Positions 3,286 through 29,518 of a DNA stretch of 32,000 bases are shown here, one piece after another. The position numbers were made by a program, and so were the translations under genes. Where the stretch lies: assembly GCA_964640155.1 (NCBI GenBank), contig CAZXEQ010000002.1, positions 60,001 through 92,000 of the forward strand, given 5' to 3'. Numbering within the stretch: position 1 is the stretch's first letter; each line of letters begins with the position of its first letter. The stretch comes from an uncultured bacterium. Lineage in GTDB: Bacteria > Auribacterota > JACPWU01. Under the pieces are notes generated by a model. The model was not told the origin of the DNA. It made no database searches and saw only the letters and a list, made by a program, of their open reading frames with translations.

Positions 3286-4305
3286 CTATAACACTAAATG
3301 GGACAAAACTAAATCTGCCTCTTTTTTTAGTTTTTTAAACATGATGTTTCTCTTAAAAAAATCAATCCCTCTTATTAAAAGAGTCCGAGGAACAAGCATA
3401 CTCCCCATGCTGTAAATCCAAAATCGAAAATTAAAAAGATTCTGCCAGCGATATTTTAAAAGCACATAAATTTCTCTCAATAGAATTCTATAAGAAGCGT
3501 AATTCTTAAGTTGTGCAAGCCCCACAAGATTATTTGTTGTAATATATCGAATACATTGTCTACGAAGACTTTCACATTCATCCCCTGCATACACAGTATT
3601 AAACATTTTTATCCAACTCATAGTCGGAGAAATATCATAAATTTGAGGTCTATGCCGCGTCATACTACTTTCAATACGAACAGCCACTGTATAATCCTTC
3701 AAATAAACAATTTTATATTTCTTGAGAATAGAGGCAAAGGGATAGATATGAGCTGGAAATATCTCTTCATGAAAGGGAATATCTATACAGCTCTTACGAT
3801 ACGCAAGTCCAGAAAGCTGTCCTGCTGATTCAAAAATAGAATTAATTACTTTTTGTCCTTCAAAAACAGAAAGAATACTGTCTTTTTTCGAGTTGAAAGG
3901 GCGTACAACCCTCACAGGATTTTCTACACCGTCATAAAACCAATAATAGGGTCTGGTAACAACACCAATATCATTTCCTAAATCAAAAGCTTTTACTGTC
4001 TTATCCAAAGTATCTTTTAAAAGAATATCGTCATGCCCTAAAAGAAAAATAAATTCTCCTCTAGCTTTTTCAAAGCATGCATTCAAATTATTACCATACC
4101 CCAAGTTCTTAGAATTTCTAAAATATCGTATGGATGAAGATGGAAGCATTTTCACAACTTCTGCGGTATCATCTGTCGAACAATCATCTCCCACAATAAT
4201 TTCATAATCCTTGAAACTCTGAGCTAAAACACTTGTAATCGTTGGACCAATCAATGAAGCTCCATTATAAGTCGGAATTAAAATGCTTAGTTTTGGATCA
4301 TTCAT
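3286..4305 (-). CDS. GT2-family glycosyltransferase
   Basis: 339 aa with the GT-A N-terminus LSILIPTYNG...YEIIVGDDCSTDDT. GAGGA lies upstream of the ATG. Confidence 0.8.
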   Translation of the reverse strand: MNDPKLSILIPTYNGASLIGPTITSVLAQSFKDYEIIVGDDCSTDDTAEVVKMLPSSSIRYFRNSKNLGYGNNLNACFEKARGEFIFLLGHDDILLKDTLDKTVKAFDLGNDIGVVTRPYYWFYDGVENPVRVVRPFNSKKDSILSVFEGQKVINSIFESAGQLSGLAYRKSCIDIPFHEEIFPAHIYPFASILKKYKIVYLKDYTVAVRIESSMTRHRPQIYDISPTMSWIKMFNTVYAGDECESLRRQCIRYITTNNLVGLAQLKNYASYRILLREIYVLLKYRWQNLFNFRFWIYSMGSMLVPRTLLIRGIDFFKRNIMFKKLKKEADLVLSHLVL

Positions 4306-7095: not shown

Positions 7096-8034
7096 CTAAC
7101 TCTCGTTCAATGATTCTTCTTTTACAATAAAATCGGGTCTTTGTTTGGTTTGCGCATAAGTACGCCCTATGTACTCTCCCAAAATTCCTATCCCAATTAA
7201 TTGAACAGATCCTAAGAATAAAATACTTACAGTCAATGTTGCCCAACCAGGCGGAAATAAGATTTTAGCAGAAGAAAAAAAACCCATAACAACTAGCATT
7301 ATCATGAATACTGCATACATAACACATAAAAAAGCAATGAGTAGTCCTGTCCATAAAAAAACTCTAAGGGGAATCGTCGAAAAAGAGAAAATGCCATCCA
7401 GAGCAAAACCTAAATAATTTTTAAGAGAGAATTTTGATTCCCCTCTTTTTCGAGCCTCAACTTTATATTCTAAAGCTATTTTTTGAAAGCCTACCCAATC
7501 CACTAATCCTCTTAAGAATTTATGCCTTTCAGGAATACGATTAAGCGTATCCACCACTTTACGATCTAACAATCTGAAATCAGATTGTCCTCTTGAAAGA
7601 TCTAATTCGGACATGAAACTCATCAAACGGTAAAATATTTTTGAGAAAGAAGAATATCTTTGATGTTCCCCTGAAGCTTTGACGGTATAAACAATTTCAT
7701 GACCCTTCTTCCAAAGTCTAATCATCTGAGGAATAAGCTCAGGAGGATGCTGTAAATCCCCATCCAAAGAAATGACTGCATCTCCAGAAGCATAGGCAAG
7801 GCCAGCAAGAAGCGCCCCTTGATGACCAAAATTTCTTGAAAGGCTTAAAAATTTTATACGGCCATCTTTCTTTCTTAATTCTTTAATAGTCAAAAGAGAG
7901 TTATCCGTACTCCCATTATCTATAAGAATCAATTCAAAACTATCCTCCATATATGAAAGAGTTTTTACAACTCTCTCATATAGCTCAAGCAAATTTTCTG
8001 CCTCATTATAAATAGGAGAAATAAGGGAAATCAT
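7096..8034 (-). CDS. polyprenyl-phosphate glycosyltransferase (GT2; GtrB/ArnC/DPM1/CsbB-like)
   Basis: 312 aa with ISLISPIYNEAENL...LILIDNGSTDNS and ISLDGDLQHPP. Two C-terminal hydrophobic helices follow (LRVFLWTGLLIAFLCVMYAVFMIMLVV and ATLTVSILFLGSVQLIGIGILGEYIGR). This is the hallmark layout of lipid-phosphate sugar-charging GT2 enzymes. Confidence 0.75.
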   Translation of the reverse strand: MISLISPIYNEAENLLELYERVVKTLSYMEDSFELILIDNGSTDNSLLTIKELRKKDGRIKFLSLSRNFGHQGALLAGLAYASGDAVISLDGDLQHPPELIPQMIRLWKKGHEIVYTVKASGEHQRYSSFSKIFYRLMSFMSELDLSRGQSDFRLLDRKVVDTLNRIPERHKFLRGLVDWVGFQKIALEYKVEARKRGESKFSLKNYLGFALDGIFSFSTIPLRVFLWTGLLIAFLCVMYAVFMIMLVVMGFFSSAKILFPPGWATLTVSILFLGSVQLIGIGILGEYIGRTYAQTKQRPDFIVKEESLNES

Positions 8035-8039
8035 AGAGG

Positions 8040-8909
8040 TTAAAATAATTTTCCTATCTTCATATTAGAAATCATTTCTTTTAAGCCCTTATCTAAAGAA
8101 TACTTTGGTTTCCAATTAAATGTCTTCTTAACGAGATCTGTATTAACGGTGCAATCAAGAATATCTGCCTTTCTGCGCTGAGACATCACTTGAACAGGTC
8201 TTTTTTCCCCAACTAAATCACGAACCATATGGGCTACTTCTAAATTCGAATAACTTTTCCCATATCCCACATTGTAAATTCCTGTTTTCACAGGGTTTGT
8301 AAGGAGAATTTTTTCGATTAAAGAACAAAAGTCTTTACCATAAAGGTAATCCCTTTTGGGCTCAGGATCGTTGATCATCAAAGAAAGTCTTTTTCGGGCC
8401 AATTCTAACAAATCCGAGATAAGTCGACCAGGTATAGAATGCAAGCCATAAACATGAAACCCTCTTAGGATGACTAAAGGCATATTTGTAAAAGAAGCGA
8501 TTTGTCTACAAAGATCCTCACAGATTATCTTGCTTCCCATATAGGGATTGGCCGCATGCACAGGGTGAAGTTCATCAATAGGAAGGTATTGTGGGACTCC
8601 ATAAGCATACGAACTCATAAATAGAAATGCAGCTTTGGACTTTTGAGCAATTTCTAATGCCTTTAGCGTCACTCCAATGTTATTTTGATAAAAAAGAAGC
8701 GGATCTTTTTGGCTTTTTTCAATCGATGTTTTTGCAGCAAAATGCAAAATCCAATCTAACTTTTCAGGCAACCGTGTTTCTGTTTTTTTTTCTTCGCTAG
8801 AATCTCTTAAATAAGAATCTAATGAAAAGACCTCATGCTGTTTCTCTAATAGATAACTCAAAACACAAGAACCTAGTGCACCCGAAGACCCCGTAATTGC
8901 AATTTTCAT
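8040..8909 (-). CDS. NAD(P)-dependent SDR (RmlD/reductase-like)
   Basis: The track ORF begins at a TTG (8916-8918). The ATG at 8907-8909 gives MKIAITGSSGALG (Rossmann fold). A YMGSK YxxxK motif is present. Confidence 0.7.
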   Translation of the reverse strand: MKIAITGSSGALGSCVLSYLLEKQHEVFSLDSYLRDSSEEKKTETRLPEKLDWILHFAAKTSIEKSQKDPLLFYQNNIGVTLKALEIAQKSKAAFLFMSSYAYGVPQYLPIDELHPVHAANPYMGSKIICEDLCRQIASFTNMPLVILRGFHVYGLHSIPGRLISDLLELARKRLSLMINDPEPKRDYLYGKDFCSLIEKILLTNPVKTGIYNVGYGKSYSNLEVAHMVRDLVGEKRPVQVMSQRRKADILDCTVNTDLVKKTFNWKPKYSLDKGLKEMISNMKIGKLF

Positions 8910-8920
8910 AATGATCAAGA

Positions 8921-9889
8921 CTAAAGCTGATTAAGTTGAGAGCCTTTCTTATAAAAAAGCTCGTAATAACGTTTAAACCATTCGATCGTCTTAACAATGC
9001 CTTCTTCAAAAGAAATTTTTGATTTCCAGTTTAAATTTTTCTGTGCCTGATAGGAAGATCCAGACATCCTCCAAATTTCAGTAGGTCGATTGGGCAAAGC
9101 TCCTATCTTTAATTTAGAAGAAGAATTTGAAAGTTGATGAATCTTCCTAACCAAATCACAAATCGCAATTTCCTCCCCAGAGCATAAATTGATAACACCT
9201 CCATGTGCAGGTTTAGCTTCAGCAGCAGCTATGAATCCTTCTACAAGATTTTCTACATAATTAAACTCGCGCGTTTGCTTCCCTTCCGTTGTCTCAACAG
9301 GCACACCTTTAAGACATTTAATGATAATTTCAGGGATAACCGCTTTTTCACTTTGATAAGGGCCAAAAGCATTAAAAGCTCGTACACATACAATTTCTTT
9401 TCCGCTTTGTGTGCGTTTCATTCTTGAATAAAGTTCTCCAGCATATTTTCCAATCGCATACGGCGAAATCGGAGCTGGAAGAAAATCTTCTTTAAAAGGA
9501 ACTTCTTCCTGATATCCATAAACTTCGGAAGATGAGATATAAACAAAACGCCCATAATCTGGAGCAAACTCTAGAAGATTTGCCGTGGCTACTGTATTTG
9601 ACATTAATGCTTCATTAACATGTAGAAAACTATCCCCAACATGATTATAAGCCGCCAGATGAAAGATCACATCATAGCTTTGTCCATTGAATTGACGAAG
9701 AGAATCAATATTTTTTAAATCTGCCTCTATCGGAGTGATTTGATCCCATACCGAGCTTAAGCGAATATTATCATTAATGCTCTTATAGCGTACGACTACG
9801 GAGACATCCGCACCCTCAGAAATAAGGTGTTTTACCAAATGAGACCCGATAAAACCTGCACCTCCTGTTACTAAAAATCTTCTTTTCAC
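8921..9889 (-). CDS. NAD-dependent epimerase/dehydratase-family SDR (epimerase or decarboxylase-like)
   Basis: 322 aa with a GTG start preceded by GGAGGAG. Motifs are FLVTGGAGFIGSHL, SSSEVYG and YAIGK. Confidence 0.8.
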   Translation of the reverse strand: MKRRFLVTGGAGFIGSHLVKHLISEGADVSVVVRYKSINDNIRLSSVWDQITPIEADLKNIDSLRQFNGQSYDVIFHLAAYNHVGDSFLHVNEALMSNTVATANLLEFAPDYGRFVYISSSEVYGYQEEVPFKEDFLPAPISPYAIGKYAGELYSRMKRTQSGKEIVCVRAFNAFGPYQSEKAVIPEIIIKCLKGVPVETTEGKQTREFNYVENLVEGFIAAAEAKPAHGGVINLCSGEEIAICDLVRKIHQLSNSSSKLKIGALPNRPTEIWRMSGSSYQAQKNLNWKSKISFEEGIVKTIEWFKRYYELFYKKGSQLNQL

Positions 9890-10605
9890 TTCTCCTCCAT
9901 AGCAGTATAAAATTTTAGTCTTCTCTCCGCCTGCTTTAATTCATCTTGAGTATTGAAGGTTACTTGAAGACCCGAATAATAAAATGCCCCCAGCTTCTCC
10001 ATGCCCATCAAAATTTTATAAAAGGTTATGAGTCCTTCTCCATCAGGCAAATCAATCACTTTGGATGACACATAATCTAAAGCTGTATGACTAATCACAG
10101 CATACCCCATGTAATAATTAAGAATAGGCTTTTCCTTAAAAAATGTAACTTTATACTCGTGGTCAAATTCAACAAGACCAAAAGGACTCTCAATAGGTGC
10201 CACAACAATCGTAACTTCGTTTTTACTTTTATGATGAACATTTAGAAGTTTTTTTAGATTAAGATCTGCATAGGTATCACCGTAAGTCATAATCACTTCT
10301 GAACTAAAAAGGTCTCTTGCATGATGAATACGCTTTAAGATTCCAACATTTTCGCCTGCATCAGAAAACTCAATCCGAGCATTCCTATTAAAACGTTTCG
10401 CAGATTTTTGAATCATTTCCCCCTTATAGCCAGTACATAAAACAAAACGATCAAATCCTTGTTGAATATAATTCTCAAGTTTTCTCTTCAAAATCGTCTT
10501 GCCGTTCACTTTCAGAAGAGGCTTCGGGAGCCCTTCACCTACCTTACCCAAACGTCGCCCTCTGCCTCCACACATGATAAGTATCTTTGGCAAACCTGAT
10601 TTCAC
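9886..10605 (-). CDS. sugar-1-phosphate nucleotidylyltransferase
   Basis: 239 aa with a GTG start and GGAG upstream. ILIMCGGRGRRLG...LPKPLL is the nucleotidyltransferase signature, and CTGYKG is also present. It overlaps the downstream SDR by 4 nt. Confidence 0.75.
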   Translation of the reverse strand: MKSGLPKILIMCGGRGRRLGKVGEGLPKPLLKVNGKTILKRKLENYIQQGFDRFVLCTGYKGEMIQKSAKRFNRNARIEFSDAGENVGILKRIHHARDLFSSEVIMTYGDTYADLNLKKLLNVHHKSKNEVTIVVAPIESPFGLVEFDHEYKVTFFKEKPILNYYMGYAVISHTALDYVSSKVIDLPDGEGLITFYKILMGMEKLGAFYYSGLQVTFNTQDELKQAERRLKFYTAMEEK

Positions 10606-10633: not shown

Positions 10634-13393
10634 CTAATGATCATTGCGAGAAATTTGAGAGAAAGCACATTTCAATATTAAAAATGAAACTAAAAAAATG
10701 TAAGTTAACATCCCTAAATAAGTAATTATATGGCTCGATTTTAAGTGATTAAATTGAATTTGTTGAGCAAAAAATATTCCTAAATTTTTACCCATTATAA
10801 GATTAAAAACTACATATTGGGCAAGGGTTAAGAATAACATTATTCTTCGAAGAGGAATCCTTTTTATCGATGCAATGTAGGAGATGCAGAACGCTAATGT
10901 TATGGGGATTAAAAGGTAATAACCAAACATAACAAGTTCAGAATATTGTGTGTTTGGTAATGCAAGAATAATGCATGGAAAGAAGGCCAATAGAAATAAG
11001 ACTTTATGCTTGTTAAAAGAACTCATTACTCCCAAGAAAAATATGATAAATAACAAGGGAGAAAGAGTTAAGAATAATCCAAGATTATTCTTAAGCAAAA
11101 TTGAAGGAAGAACTGGGAGGAATATCCCAATTAACCTCAGGAAGAGATGAGTTTTGGAAACAGTGTGATCTAGGATAAGACCAGCGTAAGAACTTTCTAC
11201 TAGAGGGAGTGAAAATTTATAATGATAATAAAGCCAAAAGAGTAGCCAAGGAATACTGACACAGAAGAAAACTCCGAAACTAACAAACATCCATTTTAAA
11301 GATCGAAATTTTAGCGCAATGTAAATGAACAAAGATATCAAGTAGACAACGGCCACTGCGGGATGAATTAAAAAACTAATTGCCGCAATAAAACCTAATA
11401 GAAAATTAGTTTTTAGATTCTGTATCCCTCTCTTCTCAATAAGAAGAAGTATTAAGAATATAGGAAAGAGAGCACAGTATTTGTAATAAACTTCAAAACT
11501 TAAGGGAAGAAAAAAAAAGAAAAAGTTGAGCAGAATAGTATAAATGGTTAGTTGGGCAGTGAGCTTATTAAAAATTCTTTTGATGACAGTGTAGATGGGC
11601 AAAAGAAAAAGCCCCCCTAGGAGGGTTAGCAATTTTTGATATATAAAATGACTCTCTCCAAAAACATGAAGAAAGGGAACTGTCAACAACGGGAGTAGTG
11701 GCGTTCTTCTGAAAACGGCAAAACGATCTCCTAGAAATTCTTGCATATACGTGGAGGCAGGATCTAAATGATGCAGAAATACTTTGGCAATTCGCCAAGG
11801 GAATAAATTATCAGCGTGATACCCATAATAAGGCATCGGAGGAATGGTTACAGTGTCTAAGTAACTTTCAATATAAGGCAATGAAAACATCAAATCTCGA
11901 TGATGTTGATACAAAATGCTAAAAACTAAAAATAAAGGAAAAACGATTAATAATGCACGGTCTTGTTGTATGACCTTCTTCCACCACCCTTTGTACAAAA
12001 AGACTAAAAAACCTACGATGCTCATCAGCAAGATAAGATTATAGATGCCTAGTATTTTACTGATTAACCCTCCTAAACTCATAATCACATACAAAATGAT
12101 GCTAAAGAAAAAGCTAAATACAAACTTATCTTCTTCATCCAATATCCTCTCTGAAAAGGCTTGTGCAATGCAATATCCGGGGAAAAAGAGCATGATTAAA
12201 AAAAGAAAGGTGTATAGAAATGATGCTGGTAATGATTTGTTGTATTGTTTGAGATAGTGTACCATCCCCTTTAAAAGTGATACTTTCTCTCTCTCATATA
12301 AATAGACTTCTCCCACTTGGACCATGTGATCTAAAAAGGCCTTTGTAAATTCAATCTTGACCTGTGTTGGTTGATATTTCGGATTGATGTAATGCGTTAC
12401 TAGCGGTTCTCGATTATCCTTCCCTTCTCCTATGCTTATCCACTCTCCATTACATAATATCTCTATTCTGTACTCTGTCGCATGATACGATGTCGCACGA
12501 TGCAAATCTCCCCAAAAAAATATTCCCACTTTCCCAATCGGCCTTGGTTTCTCAAAATCAAACACTATTACCGCTTCATGCAGAGGATTATCTGGAATGG
12601 CCACTGGCCTCATCGTCAAAGGACTTCCATCTATAATATTCTTTGCCTTCTTGGCACTTTCACATACCACCTTAGCTTCATTTGCAATATTATGATATCG
12701 ATACCTCAATCGATTATTAATCCATCTCCCCTTCGATCCCTCTTTCCAAGTATTTTCTCTCGTTCTCTGAATCCCTTCCCACAGCATCCCCACCAAAGAC
12801 TGCTTCTTCCATACCTTTATTCCCCATTGTTCAACCAATATCCCATTATCCTCGGTCCGGCAAGCTCCTGAGAATCTTATATATAGCTTGTCCTTTAAAT
12901 ATTTACCCGGAATCGGAAGATCATGCTTTCCTTCAAACCATTCCTCTTTCTTTTCTTCTTCATCTTTCTCTAATCTCCAATCTATACCCTCCTCTACCAA
13001 TGTCTTCCAACACTTTTGATCTGAAGAAACAGACACCTTTACATACCCATTGTTCCCACATCTCTTTGTGAAAACATGTAATTTCCCTGTCTTAAATCCT
13101 TTGGGAAGCTCATACCCATAAATTATTTCTGTCTCTTCAGCTTTTCCTGGTGAAAACTTATCTCCTAGCGTTTTCCAACCTCGATTAACAAGTGCCAATG
13201 CAGTTTGATCCACTTTCTTCTCTTCAAATCCTTGAAAGAGTATCTTTGACTGTAACGGATTCCAGTCCCCTCCCCCATACATAAATTCACATCCTACGTC
13301 TTTATACAAAATGGGAAGAAATAAACCTGCGAGAATGAGAAAAATAAAGAAGATTAATTTGATAAGAGGGTATGCTGTTTTAGATAAAGTCAT
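10634..13393 (-). CDS. large polytopic membrane protein, tandem copy A: signal-anchor, ~200-aa unassigned domain, discoidin (F5/8 type C)-like domain, multi-TM GT-C/YfhO-like module
   Basis: 919-aa ORF.
- N-terminal hydrophobic helix: LIKLIFFIFLILAGLFLPIL.
- Soluble region: YKDVGCEFMYGGGDW....
- Discoidin-like segment, roughly 12290..12631: FDFEKPRPIGKVGIFFWGD...YHATEYRIEILCNGEW...VKIEFTKAF...VGEVYLYE.
- About a dozen hydrophobic segments by eye, with a conserved long loop: HHRDLMFSLPYIESYLDTVTIPPMPYYGYHADN...FRRTPLLP.
The coding call is strong; the functional call is inference. Confidence 0.85.
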   Translation of the reverse strand: MTLSKTAYPLIKLIFFIFLILAGLFLPILYKDVGCEFMYGGGDWNPLQSKILFQGFEEKKVDQTALALVNRGWKTLGDKFSPGKAEETEIIYGYELPKGFKTGKLHVFTKRCGNNGYVKVSVSSDQKCWKTLVEEGIDWRLEKDEEEKKEEWFEGKHDLPIPGKYLKDKLYIRFSGACRTEDNGILVEQWGIKVWKKQSLVGMLWEGIQRTRENTWKEGSKGRWINNRLRYRYHNIANEAKVVCESAKKAKNIIDGSPLTMRPVAIPDNPLHEAVIVFDFEKPRPIGKVGIFFWGDLHRATSYHATEYRIEILCNGEWISIGEGKDNREPLVTHYINPKYQPTQVKIEFTKAFLDHMVQVGEVYLYEREKVSLLKGMVHYLKQYNKSLPASFLYTFLFLIMLFFPGYCIAQAFSERILDEEDKFVFSFFFSIILYVIMSLGGLISKILGIYNLILLMSIVGFLVFLYKGWWKKVIQQDRALLIVFPLFLVFSILYQHHRDLMFSLPYIESYLDTVTIPPMPYYGYHADNLFPWRIAKVFLHHLDPASTYMQEFLGDRFAVFRRTPLLPLLTVPFLHVFGESHFIYQKLLTLLGGLFLLPIYTVIKRIFNKLTAQLTIYTILLNFFFFFLPLSFEVYYKYCALFPIFLILLLIEKRGIQNLKTNFLLGFIAAISFLIHPAVAVVYLISLFIYIALKFRSLKWMFVSFGVFFCVSIPWLLFWLYYHYKFSLPLVESSYAGLILDHTVSKTHLFLRLIGIFLPVLPSILLKNNLGLFLTLSPLLFIIFFLGVMSSFNKHKVLFLLAFFPCIILALPNTQYSELVMFGYYLLIPITLAFCISYIASIKRIPLRRIMLFLTLAQYVVFNLIMGKNLGIFFAQQIQFNHLKSSHIITYLGMLTYIFLVSFLILKCAFSQISRNDH
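10765..13243. repeat. identical core of tandem direct repeat, copy A (partner 13707..16185, period 2942 bp)
   Basis: Every line I compared by eye is identical at an offset of 2942. Examples are 10765 vs 13707, 11161 vs 14103, 12001 vs 14943 and 12901 vs 15843. Four antisense ORFs recur with identical proteins at the same offset. Identity breaks at 10764/13706 (t vs g) and at 13244/16186 (c vs t). Confidence 0.9.
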
Positions 13394-13560: not shown

Positions 13561-16335
13561 CTAAAAAACACGTCTTAAATTCTCATTTTGAAGATTTTGA
13601 GAGAAAGCACATCGCGCTATTAAGAATGAGACTAAAAATACATAAATCAACATCCCAAAATAAGTAACGATATGATCTGACTTCAAATAGATTAATTGAA
13701 TTTGTGGAGCAAAAAATATTCCTAAATTTTTACCCATTATAAGATTAAAAACTACATATTGGGCAAGGGTTAAGAATAACATTATTCTTCGAAGAGGAAT
13801 CCTTTTTATCGATGCAATGTAGGAGATGCAGAACGCTAATGTTATGGGGATTAAAAGGTAATAACCAAACATAACAAGTTCAGAATATTGTGTGTTTGGT
13901 AATGCAAGAATAATGCATGGAAAGAAGGCCAATAGAAATAAGACTTTATGCTTGTTAAAAGAACTCATTACTCCCAAGAAAAATATGATAAATAACAAGG
14001 GAGAAAGAGTTAAGAATAATCCAAGATTATTCTTAAGCAAAATTGAAGGAAGAACTGGGAGGAATATCCCAATTAACCTCAGGAAGAGATGAGTTTTGGA
14101 AACAGTGTGATCTAGGATAAGACCAGCGTAAGAACTTTCTACTAGAGGGAGTGAAAATTTATAATGATAATAAAGCCAAAAGAGTAGCCAAGGAATACTG
14201 ACACAGAAGAAAACTCCGAAACTAACAAACATCCATTTTAAAGATCGAAATTTTAGCGCAATGTAAATGAACAAAGATATCAAGTAGACAACGGCCACTG
14301 CGGGATGAATTAAAAAACTAATTGCCGCAATAAAACCTAATAGAAAATTAGTTTTTAGATTCTGTATCCCTCTCTTCTCAATAAGAAGAAGTATTAAGAA
14401 TATAGGAAAGAGAGCACAGTATTTGTAATAAACTTCAAAACTTAAGGGAAGAAAAAAAAAGAAAAAGTTGAGCAGAATAGTATAAATGGTTAGTTGGGCA
14501 GTGAGCTTATTAAAAATTCTTTTGATGACAGTGTAGATGGGCAAAAGAAAAAGCCCCCCTAGGAGGGTTAGCAATTTTTGATATATAAAATGACTCTCTC
14601 CAAAAACATGAAGAAAGGGAACTGTCAACAACGGGAGTAGTGGCGTTCTTCTGAAAACGGCAAAACGATCTCCTAGAAATTCTTGCATATACGTGGAGGC
14701 AGGATCTAAATGATGCAGAAATACTTTGGCAATTCGCCAAGGGAATAAATTATCAGCGTGATACCCATAATAAGGCATCGGAGGAATGGTTACAGTGTCT
14801 AAGTAACTTTCAATATAAGGCAATGAAAACATCAAATCTCGATGATGTTGATACAAAATGCTAAAAACTAAAAATAAAGGAAAAACGATTAATAATGCAC
14901 GGTCTTGTTGTATGACCTTCTTCCACCACCCTTTGTACAAAAAGACTAAAAAACCTACGATGCTCATCAGCAAGATAAGATTATAGATGCCTAGTATTTT
15001 ACTGATTAACCCTCCTAAACTCATAATCACATACAAAATGATGCTAAAGAAAAAGCTAAATACAAACTTATCTTCTTCATCCAATATCCTCTCTGAAAAG
15101 GCTTGTGCAATGCAATATCCGGGGAAAAAGAGCATGATTAAAAAAAGAAAGGTGTATAGAAATGATGCTGGTAATGATTTGTTGTATTGTTTGAGATAGT
15201 GTACCATCCCCTTTAAAAGTGATACTTTCTCTCTCTCATATAAATAGACTTCTCCCACTTGGACCATGTGATCTAAAAAGGCCTTTGTAAATTCAATCTT
15301 GACCTGTGTTGGTTGATATTTCGGATTGATGTAATGCGTTACTAGCGGTTCTCGATTATCCTTCCCTTCTCCTATGCTTATCCACTCTCCATTACATAAT
15401 ATCTCTATTCTGTACTCTGTCGCATGATACGATGTCGCACGATGCAAATCTCCCCAAAAAAATATTCCCACTTTCCCAATCGGCCTTGGTTTCTCAAAAT
15501 CAAACACTATTACCGCTTCATGCAGAGGATTATCTGGAATGGCCACTGGCCTCATCGTCAAAGGACTTCCATCTATAATATTCTTTGCCTTCTTGGCACT
15601 TTCACATACCACCTTAGCTTCATTTGCAATATTATGATATCGATACCTCAATCGATTATTAATCCATCTCCCCTTCGATCCCTCTTTCCAAGTATTTTCT
15701 CTCGTTCTCTGAATCCCTTCCCACAGCATCCCCACCAAAGACTGCTTCTTCCATACCTTTATTCCCCATTGTTCAACCAATATCCCATTATCCTCGGTCC
15801 GGCAAGCTCCTGAGAATCTTATATATAGCTTGTCCTTTAAATATTTACCCGGAATCGGAAGATCATGCTTTCCTTCAAACCATTCCTCTTTCTTTTCTTC
15901 TTCATCTTTCTCTAATCTCCAATCTATACCCTCCTCTACCAATGTCTTCCAACACTTTTGATCTGAAGAAACAGACACCTTTACATACCCATTGTTCCCA
16001 CATCTCTTTGTGAAAACATGTAATTTCCCTGTCTTAAATCCTTTGGGAAGCTCATACCCATAAATTATTTCTGTCTCTTCAGCTTTTCCTGGTGAAAACT
16101 TATCTCCTAGCGTTTTCCAACCTCGATTAACAAGTGCCAATGCAGTTTGATCCACTTTCTTCTCTTCAAATCCTTGAAAGAGTATTTTAGAATGTTCAGG
16201 TCTCCAATCTCCTCCCCCATACATAAATTCACATCCTACATCTTTATACAAAATGGGAAAAAATAGACCTGCGAGAATAAAGAAAAGAAAGAAAATTAAT
16301 TTGATAAGGATCTGAGGTTTTTTAGTTGGGGTCAT
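13561..16335 (-). CDS. large polytopic membrane protein, tandem copy B (same architecture as copy A)
   Basis: 924-aa ORF. In the ORF track, its protein is identical to copy A from residue ~51 to ~876. It differs only in the first ~50 and last ~45 residues. Confidence 0.85.
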   Translation of the reverse strand: MTPTKKPQILIKLIFFLFFILAGLFFPILYKDVGCEFMYGGGDWRPEHSKILFQGFEEKKVDQTALALVNRGWKTLGDKFSPGKAEETEIIYGYELPKGFKTGKLHVFTKRCGNNGYVKVSVSSDQKCWKTLVEEGIDWRLEKDEEEKKEEWFEGKHDLPIPGKYLKDKLYIRFSGACRTEDNGILVEQWGIKVWKKQSLVGMLWEGIQRTRENTWKEGSKGRWINNRLRYRYHNIANEAKVVCESAKKAKNIIDGSPLTMRPVAIPDNPLHEAVIVFDFEKPRPIGKVGIFFWGDLHRATSYHATEYRIEILCNGEWISIGEGKDNREPLVTHYINPKYQPTQVKIEFTKAFLDHMVQVGEVYLYEREKVSLLKGMVHYLKQYNKSLPASFLYTFLFLIMLFFPGYCIAQAFSERILDEEDKFVFSFFFSIILYVIMSLGGLISKILGIYNLILLMSIVGFLVFLYKGWWKKVIQQDRALLIVFPLFLVFSILYQHHRDLMFSLPYIESYLDTVTIPPMPYYGYHADNLFPWRIAKVFLHHLDPASTYMQEFLGDRFAVFRRTPLLPLLTVPFLHVFGESHFIYQKLLTLLGGLFLLPIYTVIKRIFNKLTAQLTIYTILLNFFFFFLPLSFEVYYKYCALFPIFLILLLIEKRGIQNLKTNFLLGFIAAISFLIHPAVAVVYLISLFIYIALKFRSLKWMFVSFGVFFCVSIPWLLFWLYYHYKFSLPLVESSYAGLILDHTVSKTHLFLRLIGIFLPVLPSILLKNNLGLFLTLSPLLFIIFFLGVMSSFNKHKVLFLLAFFPCIILALPNTQYSELVMFGYYLLIPITLAFCISYIASIKRIPLRRIMLFLTLAQYVVFNLIMGKNLGIFFAPQIQLIYLKSDHIVTYFGMLIYVFLVSFLIARCAFSQNLQNENLRRVF
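13707..16185. repeat. identical core of tandem direct repeat, copy B
   Basis: See copy A. The flanks beyond the core (13561..13706 and 16186..16400) are homologous to copy A's flanks but clearly diverged, with substitutions and indels. Confidence 0.9.
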
Positions 16336-16400: not shown

Positions 16401-19400
16401 TTATTCTGTAATCACAAGGTTGTCATGAGTTATGCTACCTGCGGAATATCCGCTTGCAAAGCCCACTGACTTTTTAGGGAAACTGGAGACTTCGACAGAC
16501 TCATTAGAAAAAATGGTTGCTCCATCCATTACGAGTGTCATCGTCGCATAGGGACTCGCATTTGTAATAGTTACTCTCACGTGATGGCTAACTCCTTTGG
16601 TCATCGTACTTGTATACCAGCGGTAACTGCCTGCATAACCTTCATAAGGGCCATCCCTTATTCCATAGCGATTTGGGCAAATATCAACATGAATGCCCCG
16701 ATATACCAATCCTCCCCAACCATCACTTGTATTACTAAACGTCACATCATAGTCAATCGTGATATTGCGCCCACTCACATCTACGTCATAGGGCCAAATA
16801 AAGCTATATCCACCAGATCCCACAACTGAACCTATTAAAGCTCCCGAACTAAGAGCCCAATTGATATTTGTTAAAGAACCGCTGATAATCCAATTGCTGA
16901 TGCTACTAAAATCAAAACTTGAAGTGATTGTCCCTACCGGCTGTAACTGAGTTATATCTTTAATCATAATATTATCTATTTGATAATTGTTCCCAACTCC
17001 ACTGTGAGGAGAAAGGAAACCCATCCCTGTACTTGCAAAACTTCCCACTTGTATAGGTTCATTTGTAAAAATAGGTTTGCCATCTACATATAAATCACTC
17101 AGATAATAAGGGCTTGCCTGTCGAATAAGTAAAATCACATGATGCGTTGCACCGCGAGAGACCCCACTGAACCAACGATAAGTTCCTGGATATCCTTCGT
17201 AGATTCCATCTCGCCATCCAATTCGATTAGGATTGAGATCCAGTGAAATTCCACGAAAGCGTACGCCACCCCACCCATCTGAATTATTAAAAACAACATC
17301 ATATTCTATAGCAAGTTCACTGAAGCTCGCTAAATTTAATCCCGTATTATCAAGCATAGAATAGCCCCCCGTTCCTACAACTGACGCTTGAAGCTTGTTG
17401 GATGCAATCGTCCAATCTATATTACTCACTGCACCGCTCTCAACCCATCCCGAAGGAAGAGAAGCACCATCAAAGCTCTCTTGATAAATCAATCCTGGAT
17501 TAGAACTCGGAACAACAACTGCAATAGTAATTGTTTCTGTATCCGTAAGACTCCCATCACTCGCTCTAATAGTTACTGTATAGGTTCCTGCATCTGATTC
17601 TATTGTTGTCCAAGTAAACACTCCAGTATTCGTATTAATACTTGCTCCTGTAGGTAGGCCTGTAGCACTATAAGTAATCGTACCAGCATTCATATCAATA
17701 GCTTTAGCCTGAAAAGTCAAGGTTCGTCCAGCCGTGACTCTTTGATTGCCAATGGCGTCTAAAACAGGAGCAAAATTAGCTCCAGCAGTAGCTGTAGTAA
17801 TATTTAAACTATCATTGGTTGTGCTCCCTGTGAAATAATTTGAAATGAATCCAACAGTTGTATCAGGATAACTGTTAACTTCAATCGCTTCACCGGTAAA
17901 AATAGCCGTTCCGTCGACATAAAGATTTGCAAGATCATAAGGACTATTTCTTTGAATCAATATCATCACACGATGGCTTCCTGCACTAAGACCTGTAAAC
18001 CATCGATAAGTTCCAGGATGTCCTTCAAAACTTCCATCCCTAAATCCTATTCTGGTTGTATTGAGATCAAGCCCTACTCCTCGAAACAACAACCCTCCCC
18101 AATTTTGAGGCGTGACATCATATTCCAATAACACATCTTTTCCACTCACATCCAAAAGAGCATGTTTTAAATAGCCGTAGCCTGTCCCTGATACACCGCT
18201 TACCACAGTTGATGTTAGAGCCCCTGAACTTACTGCCCATGCAATATTGGCATTTCCACTTGCTATCCAGGCTCCAAAATCTCCAGCATTAAAATTTTCT
18301 GTTAAAGGAAGAAGCATGGGATTAGGTTTAGGCCAAATTACAAAATTATCGTAGGTAACAGTTCCTGTAGAATAATTTGATACAAGTCCAACTGTATTAT
18401 TTAAGAAATTTCCGATCTGGATGGGTTCATTTGTAAAAATAGGTTTACCATCAATATAAAGATCACTTAACCAATAGGGACTGGCCATACGTAAAAGAAC
18501 TAAAACGTGATGTTGAACGCCTTTGGTCACTCCACTAAACCAGCGATAACTGCCTGTGAAACCCTCAAAATTTCCATCCCGCCAACCACTCCGATTCGCA
18601 TTTATATCCAGTTGCACGCCTCGAAACAACAACCCTCCCCACCCATCACTGTTATTACTAAAAGTGACATCATACGCAATAGCCAAAGAATTTATATTGC
18701 TTAGATTCAAACTACCGGGAGAAATAAAAGAATATCCTGCTCCTGCAGGTGTCGAAACCAGAGCATTGCTGTTTGCTGACCAATTTACCGTAGCTGCCCC
18801 ACTCGCGCTCCATCCCGTATAATTTCCATCATTAAAATTATCACTAAAAAGAGAACTGCTATAAGAAGCGGCATTGGAGGGATTAGTCCCTGCAACAATT
18901 TCATATAAATCGTTCATCCCATCACTATCCGTATCTGTATTATTTACATTCGTTCCATAAGTGGTCTCTTGCGTATTTGAAAGGCCATCCCCATCTGAAT
19001 CTGCAGCTGTTGCTCCTGAAATAATATTTGATATAAGTGCCGTATTACCTTTTTCATCTATTGTCTTAACTGCAAAATAATAAGTCGTCCCCTGACTCAA
19101 AGCATTAACTGTGAAATTTTCTGTAGAACCTCCAGATAAAGGAGAAGTCATTCCTATGATTCTTGTCGCTGAAGAAAAATTCCCTGCGGTAATGGCGGAG
19201 GTGGAATATCTTAAATCATAAGAAGAAGCTGTTCCAGAAGTAGCATCATCGCCTGGAGCTGTCCAGCGAAGCGTCATAGAACTTACACCTGAAGACGAGA
19301 TTGATAGATTTGAAACAGCAGCAGGTGGAATACCATCAAACATAGCAATTAAATCACGATATCTGTAATACTCTGGACGAAGTTGAAAAGGAGGAGTTGC

Positions 19401-20477
19401 TAAAAAATCTGTAATCAAATTAATCATAATCGAATACATATACCCATCTAAGCCATAGGAGATAATCTTGTCTCTTGTCCAGGAAGGCGTTTGATCAATC
19501 CCATTAAACGTGTTCAAAGCTGACTCAACCCAACCATAAATTCCATTTTGATGAGCAACTTGAGCTACTTTCTGACTTCCATCAGAAGGCTGAGCCAGAG
19601 GGCCTCCAAAACTAATCACTTTAAGATTTCGAGATAAAACTGCTTGGACTTGTTCTTCCATAATTTGTCCAATCCCAGGATTATGAGAAATTTTCAATCC
19701 CAATGGAATATCAGGTCTTCTCGTGTTTGCCAAAGTATAAATGGCTCTCATATAATCGTACATTTTTCCGTACCACCAACTGATGAAAACGTTGTAACTA
19801 GCTCCTGACCCATCACCGCTATTGGGACCTGAATAAGGCATTGCGCTTGGATTGCCTGTGTAAGCTCGCCAAGCTGCAATGGTATTAGCGTCAAATGCAC
19901 AATAATTGGCTCCATCAGGATAATAGGTTTCTCCCAAACTTCCTGTAGAAAGATAAATCACGGGAAAACTTTCTCCTGAAAATTCATTATAGAAAGCATT
20001 AATCAAACGATTCACGTAAAACAAAGTTTGTGGATGAAAAATATTGGGAGGATTAGCATCATTGTCAAAAACAGAATAAGAACCATTCTTTTTAATCCAA
20101 TGATAATTCGAATCTGAGTTTATCAACCAATTGGGAGGATAATGAATCGCAATATGAGGAATCCAAGTTAGACCTGCAGCTCTAGCTCTATTCATACATA
20201 AGCGAGCTGCTGCAAAATTAAAAGAACCATTTGATGTTTCAACTAATCTCCAAGGAATAGCATCAATAACAGCTTGCACTCCTATGTTTTTTAAATTTTG
20301 AAAAGAGGATTGATCATAGAACCAATCGCTTTGAGTCATGACAACCCAATGAATATTTGCAAGCTCATCGTCTGAAAAGGAAGTTTTAGAACTAAAAAAA
20401 AACAGAACAAGCAGTCCTAGAGCAACATGCTTTAAAAAGCTATTTTTTAAATTTTTTGCATCCTTAAGATTAAACAT
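16401..20477 (-). CDS. giant secreted multidomain protein: signal peptide, GH-A-clan-like TIM barrel (GH14/GH42-like), FN3, TSP3-like Ca-binding repeats, 2x ConA/LamG-like, cadherin/Ig-like, 2x ConA/LamG-like
   Basis: 1358-aa ORF; ATG at 20475-20477 with GAGG 6 nt upstream.
- Signal peptide (aa 1-35): a lysine-rich n-region, then VALGLLVLFFF, then SFS/DDE.
- GH-like domain (aa ~41-380, nt 19338..20357): ...GVQAVIDAIPWRLVE...NF..., PPNWL, and STGSLGETYYP, which recalls the GxxGELRYPSY catalytic-acid motif of beta-amylases.
- FN3 (aa 384-491, nt 19005..19328): LRWTAPGDD...YDLRYS...TYYFAVKTID.
- Ca-binding repeats (nt 18873..19004): DSDGDGLSN...DTDSDGMND.
- Ig/cadherin-like domain (aa 899-990, nt 17508..17783): APVLDAIGNQ...TYSATGLPTGASINTNTGVFTWT...GTYTVTIRASDG. 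Confidence 0.85.
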   Translation of the reverse strand: MFNLKDAKNLKNSFLKHVALGLLVLFFFSSKTSFSDDELANIHWVVMTQSDWFYDQSSFQNLKNIGVQAVIDAIPWRLVETSNGSFNFAAARLCMNRARAAGLTWIPHIAIHYPPNWLINSDSNYHWIKKNGSYSVFDNDANPPNIFHPQTLFYVNRLINAFYNEFSGESFPVIYLSTGSLGETYYPDGANYCAFDANTIAAWRAYTGNPSAMPYSGPNSGDGSGASYNVFISWWYGKMYDYMRAIYTLANTRRPDIPLGLKISHNPGIGQIMEEQVQAVLSRNLKVISFGGPLAQPSDGSQKVAQVAHQNGIYGWVESALNTFNGIDQTPSWTRDKIISYGLDGYMYSIMINLITDFLATPPFQLRPEYYRYRDLIAMFDGIPPAAVSNLSISSSGVSSMTLRWTAPGDDATSGTASSYDLRYSTSAITAGNFSSATRIIGMTSPLSGGSTENFTVNALSQGTTYYFAVKTIDEKGNTALISNIISGATAADSDGDGLSNTQETTYGTNVNNTDTDSDGMNDLYEIVAGTNPSNAASYSSSLFSDNFNDGNYTGWSASGAATVNWSANSNALVSTPAGAGYSFISPGSLNLSNINSLAIAYDVTFSNNSDGWGGLLFRGVQLDINANRSGWRDGNFEGFTGSYRWFSGVTKGVQHHVLVLLRMASPYWLSDLYIDGKPIFTNEPIQIGNFLNNTVGLVSNYSTGTVTYDNFVIWPKPNPMLLPLTENFNAGDFGAWIASGNANIAWAVSSGALTSTVVSGVSGTGYGYLKHALLDVSGKDVLLEYDVTPQNWGGLLFRGVGLDLNTTRIGFRDGSFEGHPGTYRWFTGLSAGSHRVMILIQRNSPYDLANLYVDGTAIFTGEAIEVNSYPDTTVGFISNYFTGSTTNDSLNITTATAGANFAPVLDAIGNQRVTAGRTLTFQAKAIDMNAGTITYSATGLPTGASINTNTGVFTWTTIESDAGTYTVTIRASDGSLTDTETITIAVVVPSSNPGLIYQESFDGASLPSGWVESGAVSNIDWTIASNKLQASVVGTGGYSMLDNTGLNLASFSELAIEYDVVFNNSDGWGGVRFRGISLDLNPNRIGWRDGIYEGYPGTYRWFSGVSRGATHHVILLIRQASPYYLSDLYVDGKPIFTNEPIQVGSFASTGMGFLSPHSGVGNNYQIDNIMIKDITQLQPVGTITSSFDFSSISNWIISGSLTNINWALSSGALIGSVVGSGGYSFIWPYDVDVSGRNITIDYDVTFSNTSDGWGGLVYRGIHVDICPNRYGIRDGPYEGYAGSYRWYTSTMTKGVSHHVRVTITNASPYATMTLVMDGATIFSNESVEVSSFPKKSVGFASGYSAGSITHDNLVITE
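16404..18851 (-). repeat. four intragenic ~170-180-aa beta-sandwich (ConA/LamG-like) repeats R1-R4
   Basis: Repeat coordinates are R1 18330..18851, R2 17802..18308, R3 16956..17492 and R4 16404..16925. All share ...YDVTF.N.SDGWGG..FRG..LD.N.NR.G.RDG..EG..G.YRWF.G...H.V......SPY...LY.DG..IF..E.I.V..F.... R1 and R3 are also visibly similar at DNA level, e.g. ggttcatttgtaaaaataggttt at 17056..17078 and 18424..18446. Confidence 0.8.
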
Positions 20478-20487
20478 AATTAGCCTC

Positions 20488-20528: not shown

Positions 20529-20539
20529 TAATTTTTGCT

Positions 20540-20579: not shown

Positions 20580-20583
20580 GCAT

Positions 20584-27322: not shown

Positions 27323-29518
27323 ATGAAGCATTTAATTCTAAAAACTCTTGGTCTAATATTTTTTATCGTTGTCCTTGTTTGTATATTTAACCCTTATTTG
27401 TTTCAATCTCTTCAAAAAAGATTTTGCTATCGTTATCACAACATCGCTTCACAAAGCCAAATCATCTTATCGCAAGATCACAATGATTTAAAAAATTTTT
27501 CAGATGAGAACCCTCTTACCATTAAAGGTTTAAAAGTTCTACCGCCTACAGGGACAGCTGATCTTGTTTTTGATTTTGGTCGACCTCGATCCATTAGCAA
27601 GGTTAGCATCTTTTTCTGGGGAGACCTACACCGAGCAATGTCCTATCATGCGACCGAATATAAGATCGATTTTTTATATAGAGACAAATGGGTTAGAATC
27701 ATTGAAAATAAACATCATCGAGGGCCATGGGCTGCCCATCATATTACTGCCATTGAAGCTAAACAAATACGTTTTATTTTTTCAAAACCGTTTTTAGACG
27801 AACATATCTATATCGCTGAGATCGGCTTGTATGAGGCAGAAAAAGTACCGTTGTGGACAGGCCTGACATCTTTTTTAAAATTACATTGTAAGTCTTTACC
27901 CGCTTGCTTCTTCTATATTTTGATATTTCTCTGCTTTTTGTTTTTTCCAGGATACTGCTTCACTAAATACGTTTTTAAAAAAAATCTTGATAAAGAAAGT
28001 ATGTTCGTATTTTCTTTTTTCTTTAGTTTTTTTATATATTCTGCACTTAGCATATTTGGTTTGCTGACAGGGCAGAACTGGATTTATTATTTGATTCTTC
28101 CCATTTCTATTGCTGCAATTCTTATTTTTATCTGTAAAGGAGGATTAAAAGAAATAAGGGGTTTAGATAAAAATTTATGGATGATACTAATTTTATTTTT
28201 GTTTTTTAGCACTCTTTATCAATATCATAGAGATCTTGTTTTTTCATTGCCTTACATTGAAAGTCATTTGGATACACTCACGATTCCTCCCTTACCTTAC
28301 TACGGTTATCATGCCGACAACTTTGTGCAATGGAGGATTTCAAAAGCTTTTCTTCATCATTTAGATCTAACGTCCCCTTATATGAAAGAGTATTTGGGCG
28401 ATTCCCAATTCAGCGTCTTTCACCGTACTCCCTTGCTCCCTATCTTGAGTGTTCCTTTCTTGAGTTTTTTTGGAGAAAGCCATTTTATTTATCAGAGACT
28501 TTTAACCATCCTGGCTGGACTTTTTCTCCTACCTCTTTATCTTGTTTTAAAAAAAGATTTTAATAAACGTACCGCTCAGCTAACCCTCTACACGCTTCTC
28601 ATTAACTTTTTTTTCTTTCTTTTTTCATTTAGCTTTGAAATGTATTACAAGTATTTTGCACTTTTCCCTGTATTTTTATTTTTGCTTTTAATTGAACAAA
28701 ATAACTTACAAAATAAAAAAGTTTTTATTTTATGCGCCTTGGTTGCAGGCACTGCTTACTTAATCCATCCTGGCATTGGCCTCGTTTACCTCTCTTCTTT
28801 ATACATCTACGCCTTGCTCAAATTTCGTTCATGGAGATGGTTATTTTTGAACATTGGGGGTTTCTTGCTGATCATTACTCCATGGTTGCTCTTCTTGCTC
28901 TATTATCATCATCAGCTTTCTTTCCCTTGGATAAAAGGGCCTTATGCAACTATCGTTTCTGACTGGAATCTTCCAAGACCCTCCTTTTTAATGAGACTTA
29001 TCGCAATATTCATTCCTGTTATTCAGTCCCATGGAATGTTTCCAAAAAACTTAAGCTTGTGGATGGCTATTTCTCCTTTAATTTTTATAATTTTTATTGC
29101 TGCATGTATAAAACGCTTTCTCACCTACAAAAAATTTATTTTGCTTTCTTTTTTGCCGTGCCTTATTTTAACACTACCTAAATCGTTCGAACTTTTCACC
29201 TTTGGTTACTTTTTTTTAATTCCCATGGCCCTAGCATTTTCTTTTTTTGAGATCTCTTCCATAAAAAGACCTGGCTTACAAAAGATAATTTTCTATATGA
29301 TCTTAACTCAATATATTATTTTTAATTTAATCATCGGGAAAAAGGTTGGATCTTTCTTTTACAAACAAATTCAATGGAGTTCGATAACCCTTGTTCATGC
29401 CTTTACTTTTATCGGAATGGCGATTTATATTCTCACCATTGTTTGGCTTCTTTTCAGAATTGCTTGCGAAGTCCCTTCTGATCTTGCAATCAAAAAGAAG
29501 TATGAGAATATGGATTGA
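27323..29518 (+). CDS. polytopic membrane protein, third paralog of the tandem pair (lacks their ~200-aa N-terminal domain)
   Basis: 731 aa and the only plus-strand gene in the window.
- Signal-anchor: LGLIFFIVVLVCIF.
- Discoidin-like domain, about 27506..27841: LVFDFGRPRSISKVSIFFWGDLHRAMSYHATEYKIDFLYRDKW...IRFIFSKPF...IAEIGLYE.
- The multi-TM module shares the loop HRDLVFSLPYIESHLDTLTIPPLPYYGYHADN...FHRTPLLP with copies A and B. Confidence 0.85.
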   Translation: MKHLILKTLGLIFFIVVLVCIFNPYLFQSLQKRFCYRYHNIASQSQIILSQDHNDLKNFSDENPLTIKGLKVLPPTGTADLVFDFGRPRSISKVSIFFWGDLHRAMSYHATEYKIDFLYRDKWVRIIENKHHRGPWAAHHITAIEAKQIRFIFSKPFLDEHIYIAEIGLYEAEKVPLWTGLTSFLKLHCKSLPACFFYILIFLCFLFFPGYCFTKYVFKKNLDKESMFVFSFFFSFFIYSALSIFGLLTGQNWIYYLILPISIAAILIFICKGGLKEIRGLDKNLWMILILFLFFSTLYQYHRDLVFSLPYIESHLDTLTIPPLPYYGYHADNFVQWRISKAFLHHLDLTSPYMKEYLGDSQFSVFHRTPLLPILSVPFLSFFGESHFIYQRLLTILAGLFLLPLYLVLKKDFNKRTAQLTLYTLLINFFFFLFSFSFEMYYKYFALFPVFLFLLLIEQNNLQNKKVFILCALVAGTAYLIHPGIGLVYLSSLYIYALLKFRSWRWLFLNIGGFLLIITPWLLFLLYYHHQLSFPWIKGPYATIVSDWNLPRPSFLMRLIAIFIPVIQSHGMFPKNLSLWMAISPLIFIIFIAACIKRFLTYKKFILLSFLPCLILTLPKSFELFTFGYFFLIPMALAFSFFEISSIKRPGLQKIIFYMILTQYIIFNLIIGKKVGSFFYKQIQWSSITLVHAFTFIGMAIYILTIVWLLFRIACEVPSDLAIKKKYENMD

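Follow-up and report, generated by a model that had tools for sequence, protein, structure and literature searches.

A putative outward-facing GT-C glycosyltransferase with an N-terminal CBM32-like domain, encoded in tandem in a bacterial glycan-biosynthesis cluster

GT-C membrane glycosyltransferases add sugars from lipid-linked donors outside the cell. The described systems closest to the locus considered here are ArnT (PDB 5EZM/5F15; Pfam PMT/PMT_2), the three-component GtrA/GtrB/Gtr* systems together with streptococcal GtrB/PgtC2 and PgfS/PgfM1, and the mycobacterial arabinofuranosyltransferases EmbA/B/C and AftD, which combine a GT-C fold with extracytoplasmic carbohydrate-binding modules (CBMs) that presumably bind the acceptor. 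It is well established that a GT2 synthase of polyprenyl-phosphate sugars pairs with a GT-C enzyme, and such synthases feed lipid-linked monosaccharides to the GT-C enzyme in the GtrB/Gtr*, ArnC/ArnT and PgfS/PgfM1 pathways (PMC11127046; 10.1101/2024.05.05.592596). Here, we analyzed an open reading frame (ORF) at positions 10634-13393 (minus strand) of a 32,000-nt stretch of DNA from an uncultured bacterium (contig CAZXEQ010000002.1, positions 60,001 to 92,000; hereafter, the window). The ORF, referred to as copy A, starts with ATG and encodes 919 aa. An earlier reading of the DNA, made without database searches (the sequence-only reading), had left the protein unassigned and had proposed a new family of extracytoplasmic glycan polymerases or transferases. 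Our results suggest that copy A is, with good probability, an outward-facing GT-C transferase of a GtrB/GT-C-type pathway whose CBM32 domain holds a glycan acceptor.

The window has a GC content of ~35%, and its co-directional genes are densely packed. A 2.76-kb ORF in DNA of 35% GC, with homologs down to E = 7.5e-71, is evidently not a product of chance. All peptides quoted in the sequence-only reading were found in the translation of copy A. The anatomy of the protein was derived from hydropathy and from two AlphaFold models, and its predicted features are as follows:

10634..13393, minus strand: copy A, whole gene; 919 aa with a predicted anchor, orphan domain, CBM32 and 15-helix transmembrane (TM) GT-C module
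13298..13372, minus strand: signal anchor, aa 8-32, N-terminus inside; hydropathy peak 2.76, helix 8-32 in the model
12719..13297, minus strand: extracytoplasmic orphan domain, aa 33-225; nothing matched in Pfam, NCBIfam or the PDB, pLDDT <50
12278..12712, minus strand: discoidin/CBM32-like domain, aa 228-372; Pfam F5_F8_type_C, with a profile and fold match to PDB 4a42
11993..12232, minus strand: three extra TM helices, a-c, aa 388-467; AlphaFold helices 388-413, 420-445 and 448-467
10637..11959, minus strand: predicted GT-C core, aa 479-919, 12 TM helices; model pLDDT 88 and pTM 0.91, top 22 Foldseek matches in the PDB all GT-C
11651..11905, minus strand: outer loop EL1, aa 497-581, with D500, D513, D528, R563 and F578-G579-E580; candidate site of catalysis and of lipid-phosphate binding
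11249..11710, minus strand: PMT_2-equivalent stretch, aa 562-715, including the invariant H677-P678; PMT_2 matches in homologs P0005, P0006, P0009 and P0011, mapped through the alignment

Hydropathy, the models and Pfam thus bear out the order of signal anchor, ~200-aa domain, discoidin-like domain and multi-TM module read from the sequence earlier. The multi-TM module spans aa 385-919 (535 aa), and in the AlphaFold models its 15 TM helices lie within aa 388-912. Helices a-c are located between the CBM, which is modeled as a beta-sandwich at aa 228-372, and the GT-C core, and are followed by a K/R-rich inner loop (KGWWKKVIQQD). Lysine and arginine account for 10 of the 47 residues in predicted inner loops, compared with 5 of the 73 in short outer loops; the K/R-rich short inner loops are KGWWKKVIQQD, KRIFNK, EKRGIQNLK, KFRSLK, NKHK and IKRIPLRR. 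Moreover, a Patescibacteria homolog at locus L005 ends in a GT4 domain. Such domains belong to cytoplasmic enzymes that use nucleotide sugars, in keeping with a C-terminus inside the cell. Both lines of evidence support the predicted orientation, which had also been deduced in the sequence-only reading: the N-terminus would be inside, both soluble domains and the loop at aa 497-581 would face outward, and the C-terminus would be cytoplasmic. The L005 homolog (positions 297-3674; SAG AM-311-K10) is a single 1125-aa ORF with a full GT4 (Glyco_transf_4 plus Glycos_transf_1) after the GT-C module; if not a sequencing artefact, this fusion would unite a cytoplasmic and an extracytoplasmic transferase in one protein.

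Word-index homolog searches with the full protein, the soluble region or an alignment returned only the query itself and its paralog, or nothing, probably because hydrophobic words swamp the candidate list, and an exhaustive hidden Markov model (HMM) search was therefore needed. An exact-sequence look-up of copy A likewise returned no record. A profile was built from the three paralogs of the window (copy A, its tandem copy B and paralog C; see below) and searched exhaustively against 1.84 billion cluster representatives, of which 73 matched at E <= 1e-3 and 29 at E <= 1e-30. Most of these homologs are 720-760 aa long, and their alignments start at the discoidin domain and run through to the C-terminus. 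All five homologs that were located in species-representative genomes belong to Patescibacteria, including Saccharibacteria and Woesebacteria. One homolog of the family carries the NCBI name 'hypothetical protein [Patescibacteria group bacterium]'.

Among 62 aligned sequences, D528 and H677 are invariant, and G406, R563 (94%), F578, G579 and W716 are conserved in at least 90%. The other acidic residues of EL1, D500 and D513, are conserved in 76% and 64%, respectively, and lie with D528 on the outer face. In the model, all of the conserved polar residues, including D528, H677 and R563, are on that face. Between copy A and paralog C, conservation peaks in the loop at aa 497-568, with 75% identity compared with 52% for the whole module; its earlier description as nearly invariant was therefore overstated, although its rank as the best-conserved part holds. 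The suspicion that it is a catalytic or substrate-binding region gains support from the invariant D528 and near-invariant R563 that it contains.

An AlphaFold model of aa 380-919, built with the 62 sequences, had a pLDDT of 88 and a pTM of 0.91. When compared with the PDB using Foldseek, its top 22 matches were all GT-C enzymes (probability 0.97-1.00). ArnT came first (5f15 and 5ezm; E = 3e-3, TM-score 0.40-0.43), followed by ALG12, AglB, PglB, STT3, ALG9, Pmt4 and AftA, with DPY19 and EmbA/B lower; ALG12 had the lowest root-mean-square deviation (rmsd) among the matches. Transporters, of the MFS and other types, reached probabilities of only 0.06-0.23, and no WaaL, Wzy or SEDS protein was listed. 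The core has 12 predicted TM helices, compared with ~11-13 expected of a GT-C enzyme, and a conserved acidic residue in its first outer loop. As modeled, the membrane module has a GT-C fold and not a new one.

In a Pfam scan, the only match of copy A was F5_F8_type_C, none being found for the membrane module, and an NCBIfam scan of the family members in the window yielded no match at all. Homologs of copy A were more informative. PMT_2 (PF13231) was found in 26 of 50 aligned homologs at E <= 0.01 (best E = 3.6e-13), and F5_F8_type_C in 10 of the 50. The PMT_2 cut-off of 26.1 bits was reached or exceeded by the close homologs P0005 (30.8 bits), P0030 (37.4 bits) and P0009 (26.1 bits); E. coli ArnT itself scores 37.1 bits on this model. 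The homologs' matches map to aa 562-715 of copy A and share the register of residues 61-222 of E. coli ArnT; position 2 of the PMT_2 HMM corresponds to R563 in the family and to K61 in E. coli ArnT. The E. coli enzyme has D31-E32 after TM1 and E60-K61 before a 'P...FG' motif. Each of these residues is numbered 24 lower than its counterpart in C. metallidurans ArnT (D55/E56 and E84/K85), and E. coli K61 is therefore equivalent to C. metallidurans K85. In the latter enzyme, D55 is the active-site Asp shared by GT-C enzymes and K85 contacts the phosphate of the lipid carrier (PMC7801869). In addition, R563 and G579 of copy A are 16 residues apart, as are K61 and G77 of E. coli ArnT. By this transitive alignment, R563 is probably a lipid-phosphate ligand.

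YfhO, Wzy_C, O-antigen ligase and EpsG models had no match among the window proteins, and EpsG, TMEM260-like, DUF4999 and YfjL_N each had one weak match in one homolog (21.7 bits for EpsG, the cut-off being 30.1). A TgpA_N match in paralog C (27.3 bits, cut-off 30 bits) occurred in that one sequence only and was rejected as compositional.

The discoidin-like domain could be placed more directly. F5_F8_type_C matched aa 247-351 of copy A with 27.0 bits, just under the Pfam cut-off of 28.2, and the family profile matched the CBM32 of PDB 4a42 with E = 2.9e-9. The best Foldseek matches of the full-length model were CBM32 modules (4a42_A; TM-score 0.82, rmsd 2.3 Å). Judged by sequence and predicted fold together, the domain is a CBM32, in agreement with the carbohydrate-binding type suggested earlier. 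It shares its fold and a profile-level sequence match with the CBM32 modules of clostridial glycoside hydrolases (CpGH89 CBM32-6, PDB 4A42), which are carried on secreted hydrolases, whereas that of copy A is carried on a membrane transferase.

By contrast with its neighbor, the preceding ~200-aa domain was, as the sequence-only reading had found, unassignable: aa 33-225 had no match in Pfam, NCBIfam or the PDB and no word-index homolog, and the region could not be modeled (pLDDT <50). It is probably beta-rich. The exhaustive search uncovered one distant relative, P0070 (E = 2.8e-4), with the same order of anchor, orphan domain, discoidin domain and first TM helix, and with motifs such as V-x-V-x-V-S-x-D-x-x-W and I-P-x-x-[YF]-L...[LI]-Y-[IL]-R in common with copy A. 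The only relatives of the domain, P0070, P0080 and P0081, are 405-537 aa long and end just past the first TM helix, even though they are encoded on long European Nucleotide Archive (ENA) metagenome contigs (76-135 kb); they may represent truncated or split genes, or else a lectin-anchor form that stands alone. The idea that the orphan domain is a diverged second discoidin domain was rejected after hhalign against the family's discoidin profile gave a probability of 1.4%. Homolog P0030 has two discoidin domains instead, so that family members repeatedly carry an additional binding module at the N-terminus. The orphan domain might plausibly bind carbohydrate.

With PMT_2 matches in homologs and a CBM32 in the soluble region, the family is therefore best regarded as a very divergent ArnT/PMT-type GT-C branch with a soluble domain of a known CBM family. 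The sequence-only reading had held that its proposal would fall if the membrane module matched a family such as PMT_2 and the N-terminal domains matched known CBMs. This is partly what was found, as some homologs pass the PMT_2 gathering score over aa 562-715. Its view that the module could not be assigned remains correct for the window proteins, which fall below every Pfam and NCBIfam threshold for it. Likewise, novelty applies to a divergent subfamily and its domain architecture and not to the clan, which is that of ArnT/PMT-type enzymes.

The genomic context is that of glycan biosynthesis. The window encodes seven GT2 and three GT4 enzymes, four S-adenosylmethionine (SAM) methyltransferases and two nucleotidyltransferases, as well as several NDP-sugar dehydratases/epimerases, one short-chain dehydrogenase/reductase (SDR) and one B12-binding radical SAM protein. 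The neighbors that bear most on copy A are:

8040..10605, minus strand: three nucleotide-sugar genes; Pfam NTP_transferase, GDP_Man_Dehyd and Epimerase
7096..8034, minus strand: ArnC/GtrB/PgfS-like polyprenyl-phosphate glycosyltransferase; identity to ArnC, NCBIfam PgfS and ArnC
20868-21875 and 21885-23375, minus strand: 335-aa GT2 with two C-terminal TM helices and B12-binding radical SAM protein, respectively; Pfam and NCBIfam matches, orthologs beside homologs in loci L002-L004

Downstream of copy A and on the same strand are genes for an NTP transferase, a 4,6-dehydratase-type enzyme and an epimerase/reductase-type enzyme, followed, 2.6 kb from copy A, by the ORF at 7096-8034. The product of this ORF is 31% identical to E. 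coli ArnC over its full length (E = 8e-54), matches NCBIfam PgfS (291 bits) and ArnC (167 bits), both over the full length, and has two C-terminal TM helices. On the basis of these similarities it is a polyprenyl-phosphate glycosyltransferase, and it is likely to make the lipid-linked donor for the GT-C enzyme.

Related loci were found with a 10-sequence family alignment, and the glycan-cluster context was conserved in five Patescibacteria genomes. There, the family gene belongs to a similar array of GT4, methyltransferase, family gene, B12-radical-SAM, SDR and GT2 with TM helices. The 335-aa GT2 and the B12-radical-SAM protein are the neighbors of the family that are best conserved in other Patescibacteria (46-55% identity), and they might, for instance, carry out C-methylation of a sugar or chemistry on its ring. 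The best NCBIfam match of the B12-radical-SAM protein was HpnJ, with 159 bits, far below the cut-off. Four of the related loci also encode large polytopic proteins of 756-1228 aa with 8-11 TM helices (L003 12013-15087, L004 18294-21977, L005 7437-10997 and L006 5651-7921); these have no Pfam match, or a faint one to YfhO only, and may be additional unannotated GT-C-like enzymes.

Taken together, we propose the following pathway. The three genes just downstream of copy A would produce a modified nucleotide sugar, which the ArnC/GtrB/PgfS-like GT2 (7096-8034) would move onto undecaprenyl phosphate, and a flippase would then flip the lipid-linked sugar across the membrane. In the GT-C core (aa 479-919), R563 would bind the lipid phosphate, probably with help from K638 and H677, and an acidic residue of EL1 would activate the acceptor, the candidates being the invariant D528 or D500 just after TM1. 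The membrane-tethered CBM32 and the orphan domain would hold or select the glycan acceptor, such as a surface polysaccharide or an already glycosylated protein. More broadly, three kinds of acceptor are conceivable: polysaccharides, lipid-linked glycans and glycoproteins, with the adjacent 1358-aa secreted protein as an example of the last. The three paralogs probably differ in the acceptor that they modify or in the position at which they add the sugar.

Several observations weigh against this proposal. At the level of sequence, copy A and paralog C have no PMT_2 match even at E <= 1 and lie below the gathering threshold of 26.1 bits; a single-protein phmmer search of PDB sequences gave no match, and the family profile matched only CBM32 chains there, with no GT-C chain. 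When the family profile was aligned by hhalign to the single E. coli ArnT sequence, the probability was 0.08, which is insignificant, and the short alignment obtained falls in the register expected from the PMT_2 mapping. The link of the membrane module to GT-C rests on the PMT_2 Pfam model and on structure. The structural matches are themselves moderate (E = 3e-3 to 0.6, TM-score 0.34-0.44, high rmsd), so that the assignment of the fold is good and that of the subclass tentative. D500, the residue whose position best matches the canonical Asp behind TM1, is only 76% conserved. With regard to the pathway, no clear ArnC ortholog was found within 10 kb of the five Patescibacteria homologs; the lipid-linked donor may instead come from the conserved 335-aa GT2 with TM helices. 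Finally, no GtrA- or ArnE/F-like flippase was found in the window, whose largest gaps (390 and 167 bp) leave no room for one, and the small TM proteins of the related loci had no Pfam match and included no GtrA-like flippase.

The described systems resemble copy A to different degrees. ArnT is the best structural match, and the homologs align to PMT_2 in its register. The motif 'x-[D/R]-R-T-P-L-L ...16 residues... F-G-E' parallels 'F-E-K-P ...16 residues... F-G' of ArnT; an outward active site, predicted for copy A, is common to both, and an ArnC-like undecaprenyl-phosphate sugar synthase is encoded in the same operon-like array. In contrast to these likenesses, the window proteins have no direct sequence match to ArnT. 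Copy A adds an anchor, an orphan domain, a CBM32 and three TM helices ahead of the core, lacks the C-terminal periplasmic domain of ArnT, and has an EL1 that is ~30 residues longer. Given the Patescibacteria relatives and the CBM, its acceptor is unlikely to be lipid A. The GtrA/GtrB/Gtr*, GtrB/PgtC2 and PgfS/PgfM1 systems likewise have a GT2 synthase gene beside a GT-C gene in a glycan cluster; they differ in that no GtrA-like flippase was found in the window or the related loci, and in that Gtr*/YfhO-type enzymes have no N-terminal CBM32, the family in turn having no Pfam YfhO or Gtr matches.

The same GT-C enzyme could alternatively act as a protein O-glycosyltransferase (PMT/PgfM1/TMTC-like) on secreted or surface proteins, an explanation that we consider unlikely while ranking it ahead of the others below. 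The sequence link of the family is to PMT_2, a model that covers relatives of protein mannosyltransferases, and one homolog matches a TMEM260-like model. The ArnC-like ORF scores best on PgfS, of a streptococcal protein-glycosylation pathway, yet its 291 bits are well under the 500-bit equivalog cut-off, and PgfM1/PgfM2 are of the YfhO type, to which the family has no match. A candidate substrate is at hand in the 1358-aa secreted protein (19% Ser+Thr) encoded 65 bp upstream of copy B; this protein is not, however, a conserved neighbor in the five homologous loci, and the CBM32 lectin domain indicates an acceptor that contains sugar.

The sequence-only reading had likened the protein to EmbA/B/C, and the comparison is apt insofar as the GT-C fold is concerned, with Emb, AftA, ArnT, PglB, STT3 and PMT all among the structural matches. 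A processive, Emb/AftD-like glycan polymerase whose CBMs hold the growing chain would fit this pairing of CBM and GT-C, and no recognizable Wzy, Wzx or ABC exporter was seen in the cluster. Nevertheless, the Emb and AftA matches (E = 0.1-0.6, with 8if8 at 0.11 and 7bvc_B at 0.59) are far weaker than those to ArnT, ALG12 and the oligosaccharyltransferases (3e-3), and no Emb-type Pfam domain was found. The CBM of the Emb proteins is C-terminal, whereas that of copy A is N-terminal, is preceded by its own anchor and belongs to CBM32. The many cytoplasmic GT2 and GT4 enzymes of the window could build the backbone, and processivity is not indicated by anything in the sequence. 'Polymerase' thus gains no support over 'transferase', and we rate it slightly below protein O-glycosylation. 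A non-glycosyltransferase function (a transporter, a flippase, a Wzy/WaaL-type polymerase or ligase, or a scaffold) that resembles GT-C through helical hydrophobicity might be entertained given the modest Foldseek scores, the weak EpsG match in one homolog and the sub-threshold TgpA_N match in paralog C, but is very improbable in view of the uniformly GT-C structural matches at 0.97-1.00 (transporters at 0.06-0.23; no WaaL, Wzy or SEDS), the single consistent register of PMT_2 in 26/50 homologs, the invariant outward Asp, Arg and His typical of a catalytic site, and the isolated, below-threshold nature of the EpsG and TgpA_N matches.

The proposed GT-C transferase is encoded three times in the window, the other two genes being:

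13561..16335, minus strand: copy B, in tandem; 924 aa, 97% identical to copy A, only both ends different
27323..29518, plus strand: paralog C; 731 aa, with anchor, CBM32 and predicted GT-C module

Copy B is located directly upstream of copy A. The two are exactly identical over 2,479 nt (10765-13243 in copy A and 13707-16185 in copy B, an offset of +2942) and diverge solely in the first ~50 and last ~45 codons, where identity is 70-96% per 50 nt. In an independent assembly, Logan contig L010 runs from the 5' end found only in copy B into the shared core and stops inside the repeat, at the equivalent of position 15119; there are thus two genes, each with ends of its own. The perfect core suggests a recent duplication, gene conversion, or collapse of the repeat to a consensus by the assembler. 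Paralog C is 50% identical to copy A and lacks aa ~33-225, the orphan domain, and its layout is the usual architecture of the homolog family. Antisense ORFs at 12482-12871 and 15424-15813 (plus strand) are shadow ORFs within copies A and B and were not taken as genes. GC skew and AT skew change sign locally (+0.13 and +0.25) at 11001-12000 and 14001-15000, which we take to reflect the codon composition of the Phe/Leu/Ile-rich TM-coding parts of both copies and not a replication feature.

The 1358-aa secreted protein upstream of copy B (16401-20477, minus strand) has the same orientation as copy B. Faint N-terminal GH42/GH35-like matches are followed by fn3, bacterial TSP3 repeats and He_PIG, and four modules of ~170-190 aa (aa 540-730, 725-893, 997-1159 and 1184-1356) are 46-53% identical to one another and have no Pfam match. 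The protein might be an acceptor or a glycan-processing partner. Upstream of its gene lies the largest non-coding gap of the window (390 bp; 20478-20867), which contains a strong sigma-70-like promoter on the minus strand (20785-20757; 11/12 matches) and a hairpin with a 16-bp stem and T-runs on both strands (20493-20529) that ends 16 bases upstream of the annotated gene start. This element looks like a leader/attenuator or a bidirectional terminator; an Rfam scan of the window, including the gap, gave no match.

Patescibacteria (the candidate phyla radiation) are ultra-small and mostly episymbiotic, and their surface mediates attachment to the host cell. To our knowledge, little is known about how they build that surface. 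The family of copy A is real, rare and unannotated; it belongs to a known class and follows a known logic, with no new mechanism or fold. Standard annotation misses it, as illustrated by the homolog named a hypothetical protein and by the window copies, which fall below Pfam and NCBIfam thresholds. A bolder view, which we offer tentatively and regard as the less probable one, is that these proteins form a Patescibacteria-specific, unclassified GT-C family (a candidate new CAZy family), in which an N-terminal lectin arm, made up of the CBM32 and, in the genome of the window, an orphan domain of ~195 aa with a new carbohydrate-binding fold, positions a lineage-specific, methylated surface glycan or glycoprotein for glycosylation outside the cell and which, with the conserved neighbors, the B12-radical-SAM protein, the SDR and the GT2, would constitute an undescribed envelope-glycan pathway. 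The architecture adds an unusual arrangement to the GT-C repertoire, with an N-terminal lectin domain and three extra TM helices ahead of the core. With the placement in GT-C, a candidate donor synthase and the candidate residues D528, R563 and H677, three unannotated genes become a testable step of a conserved glycan pathway.

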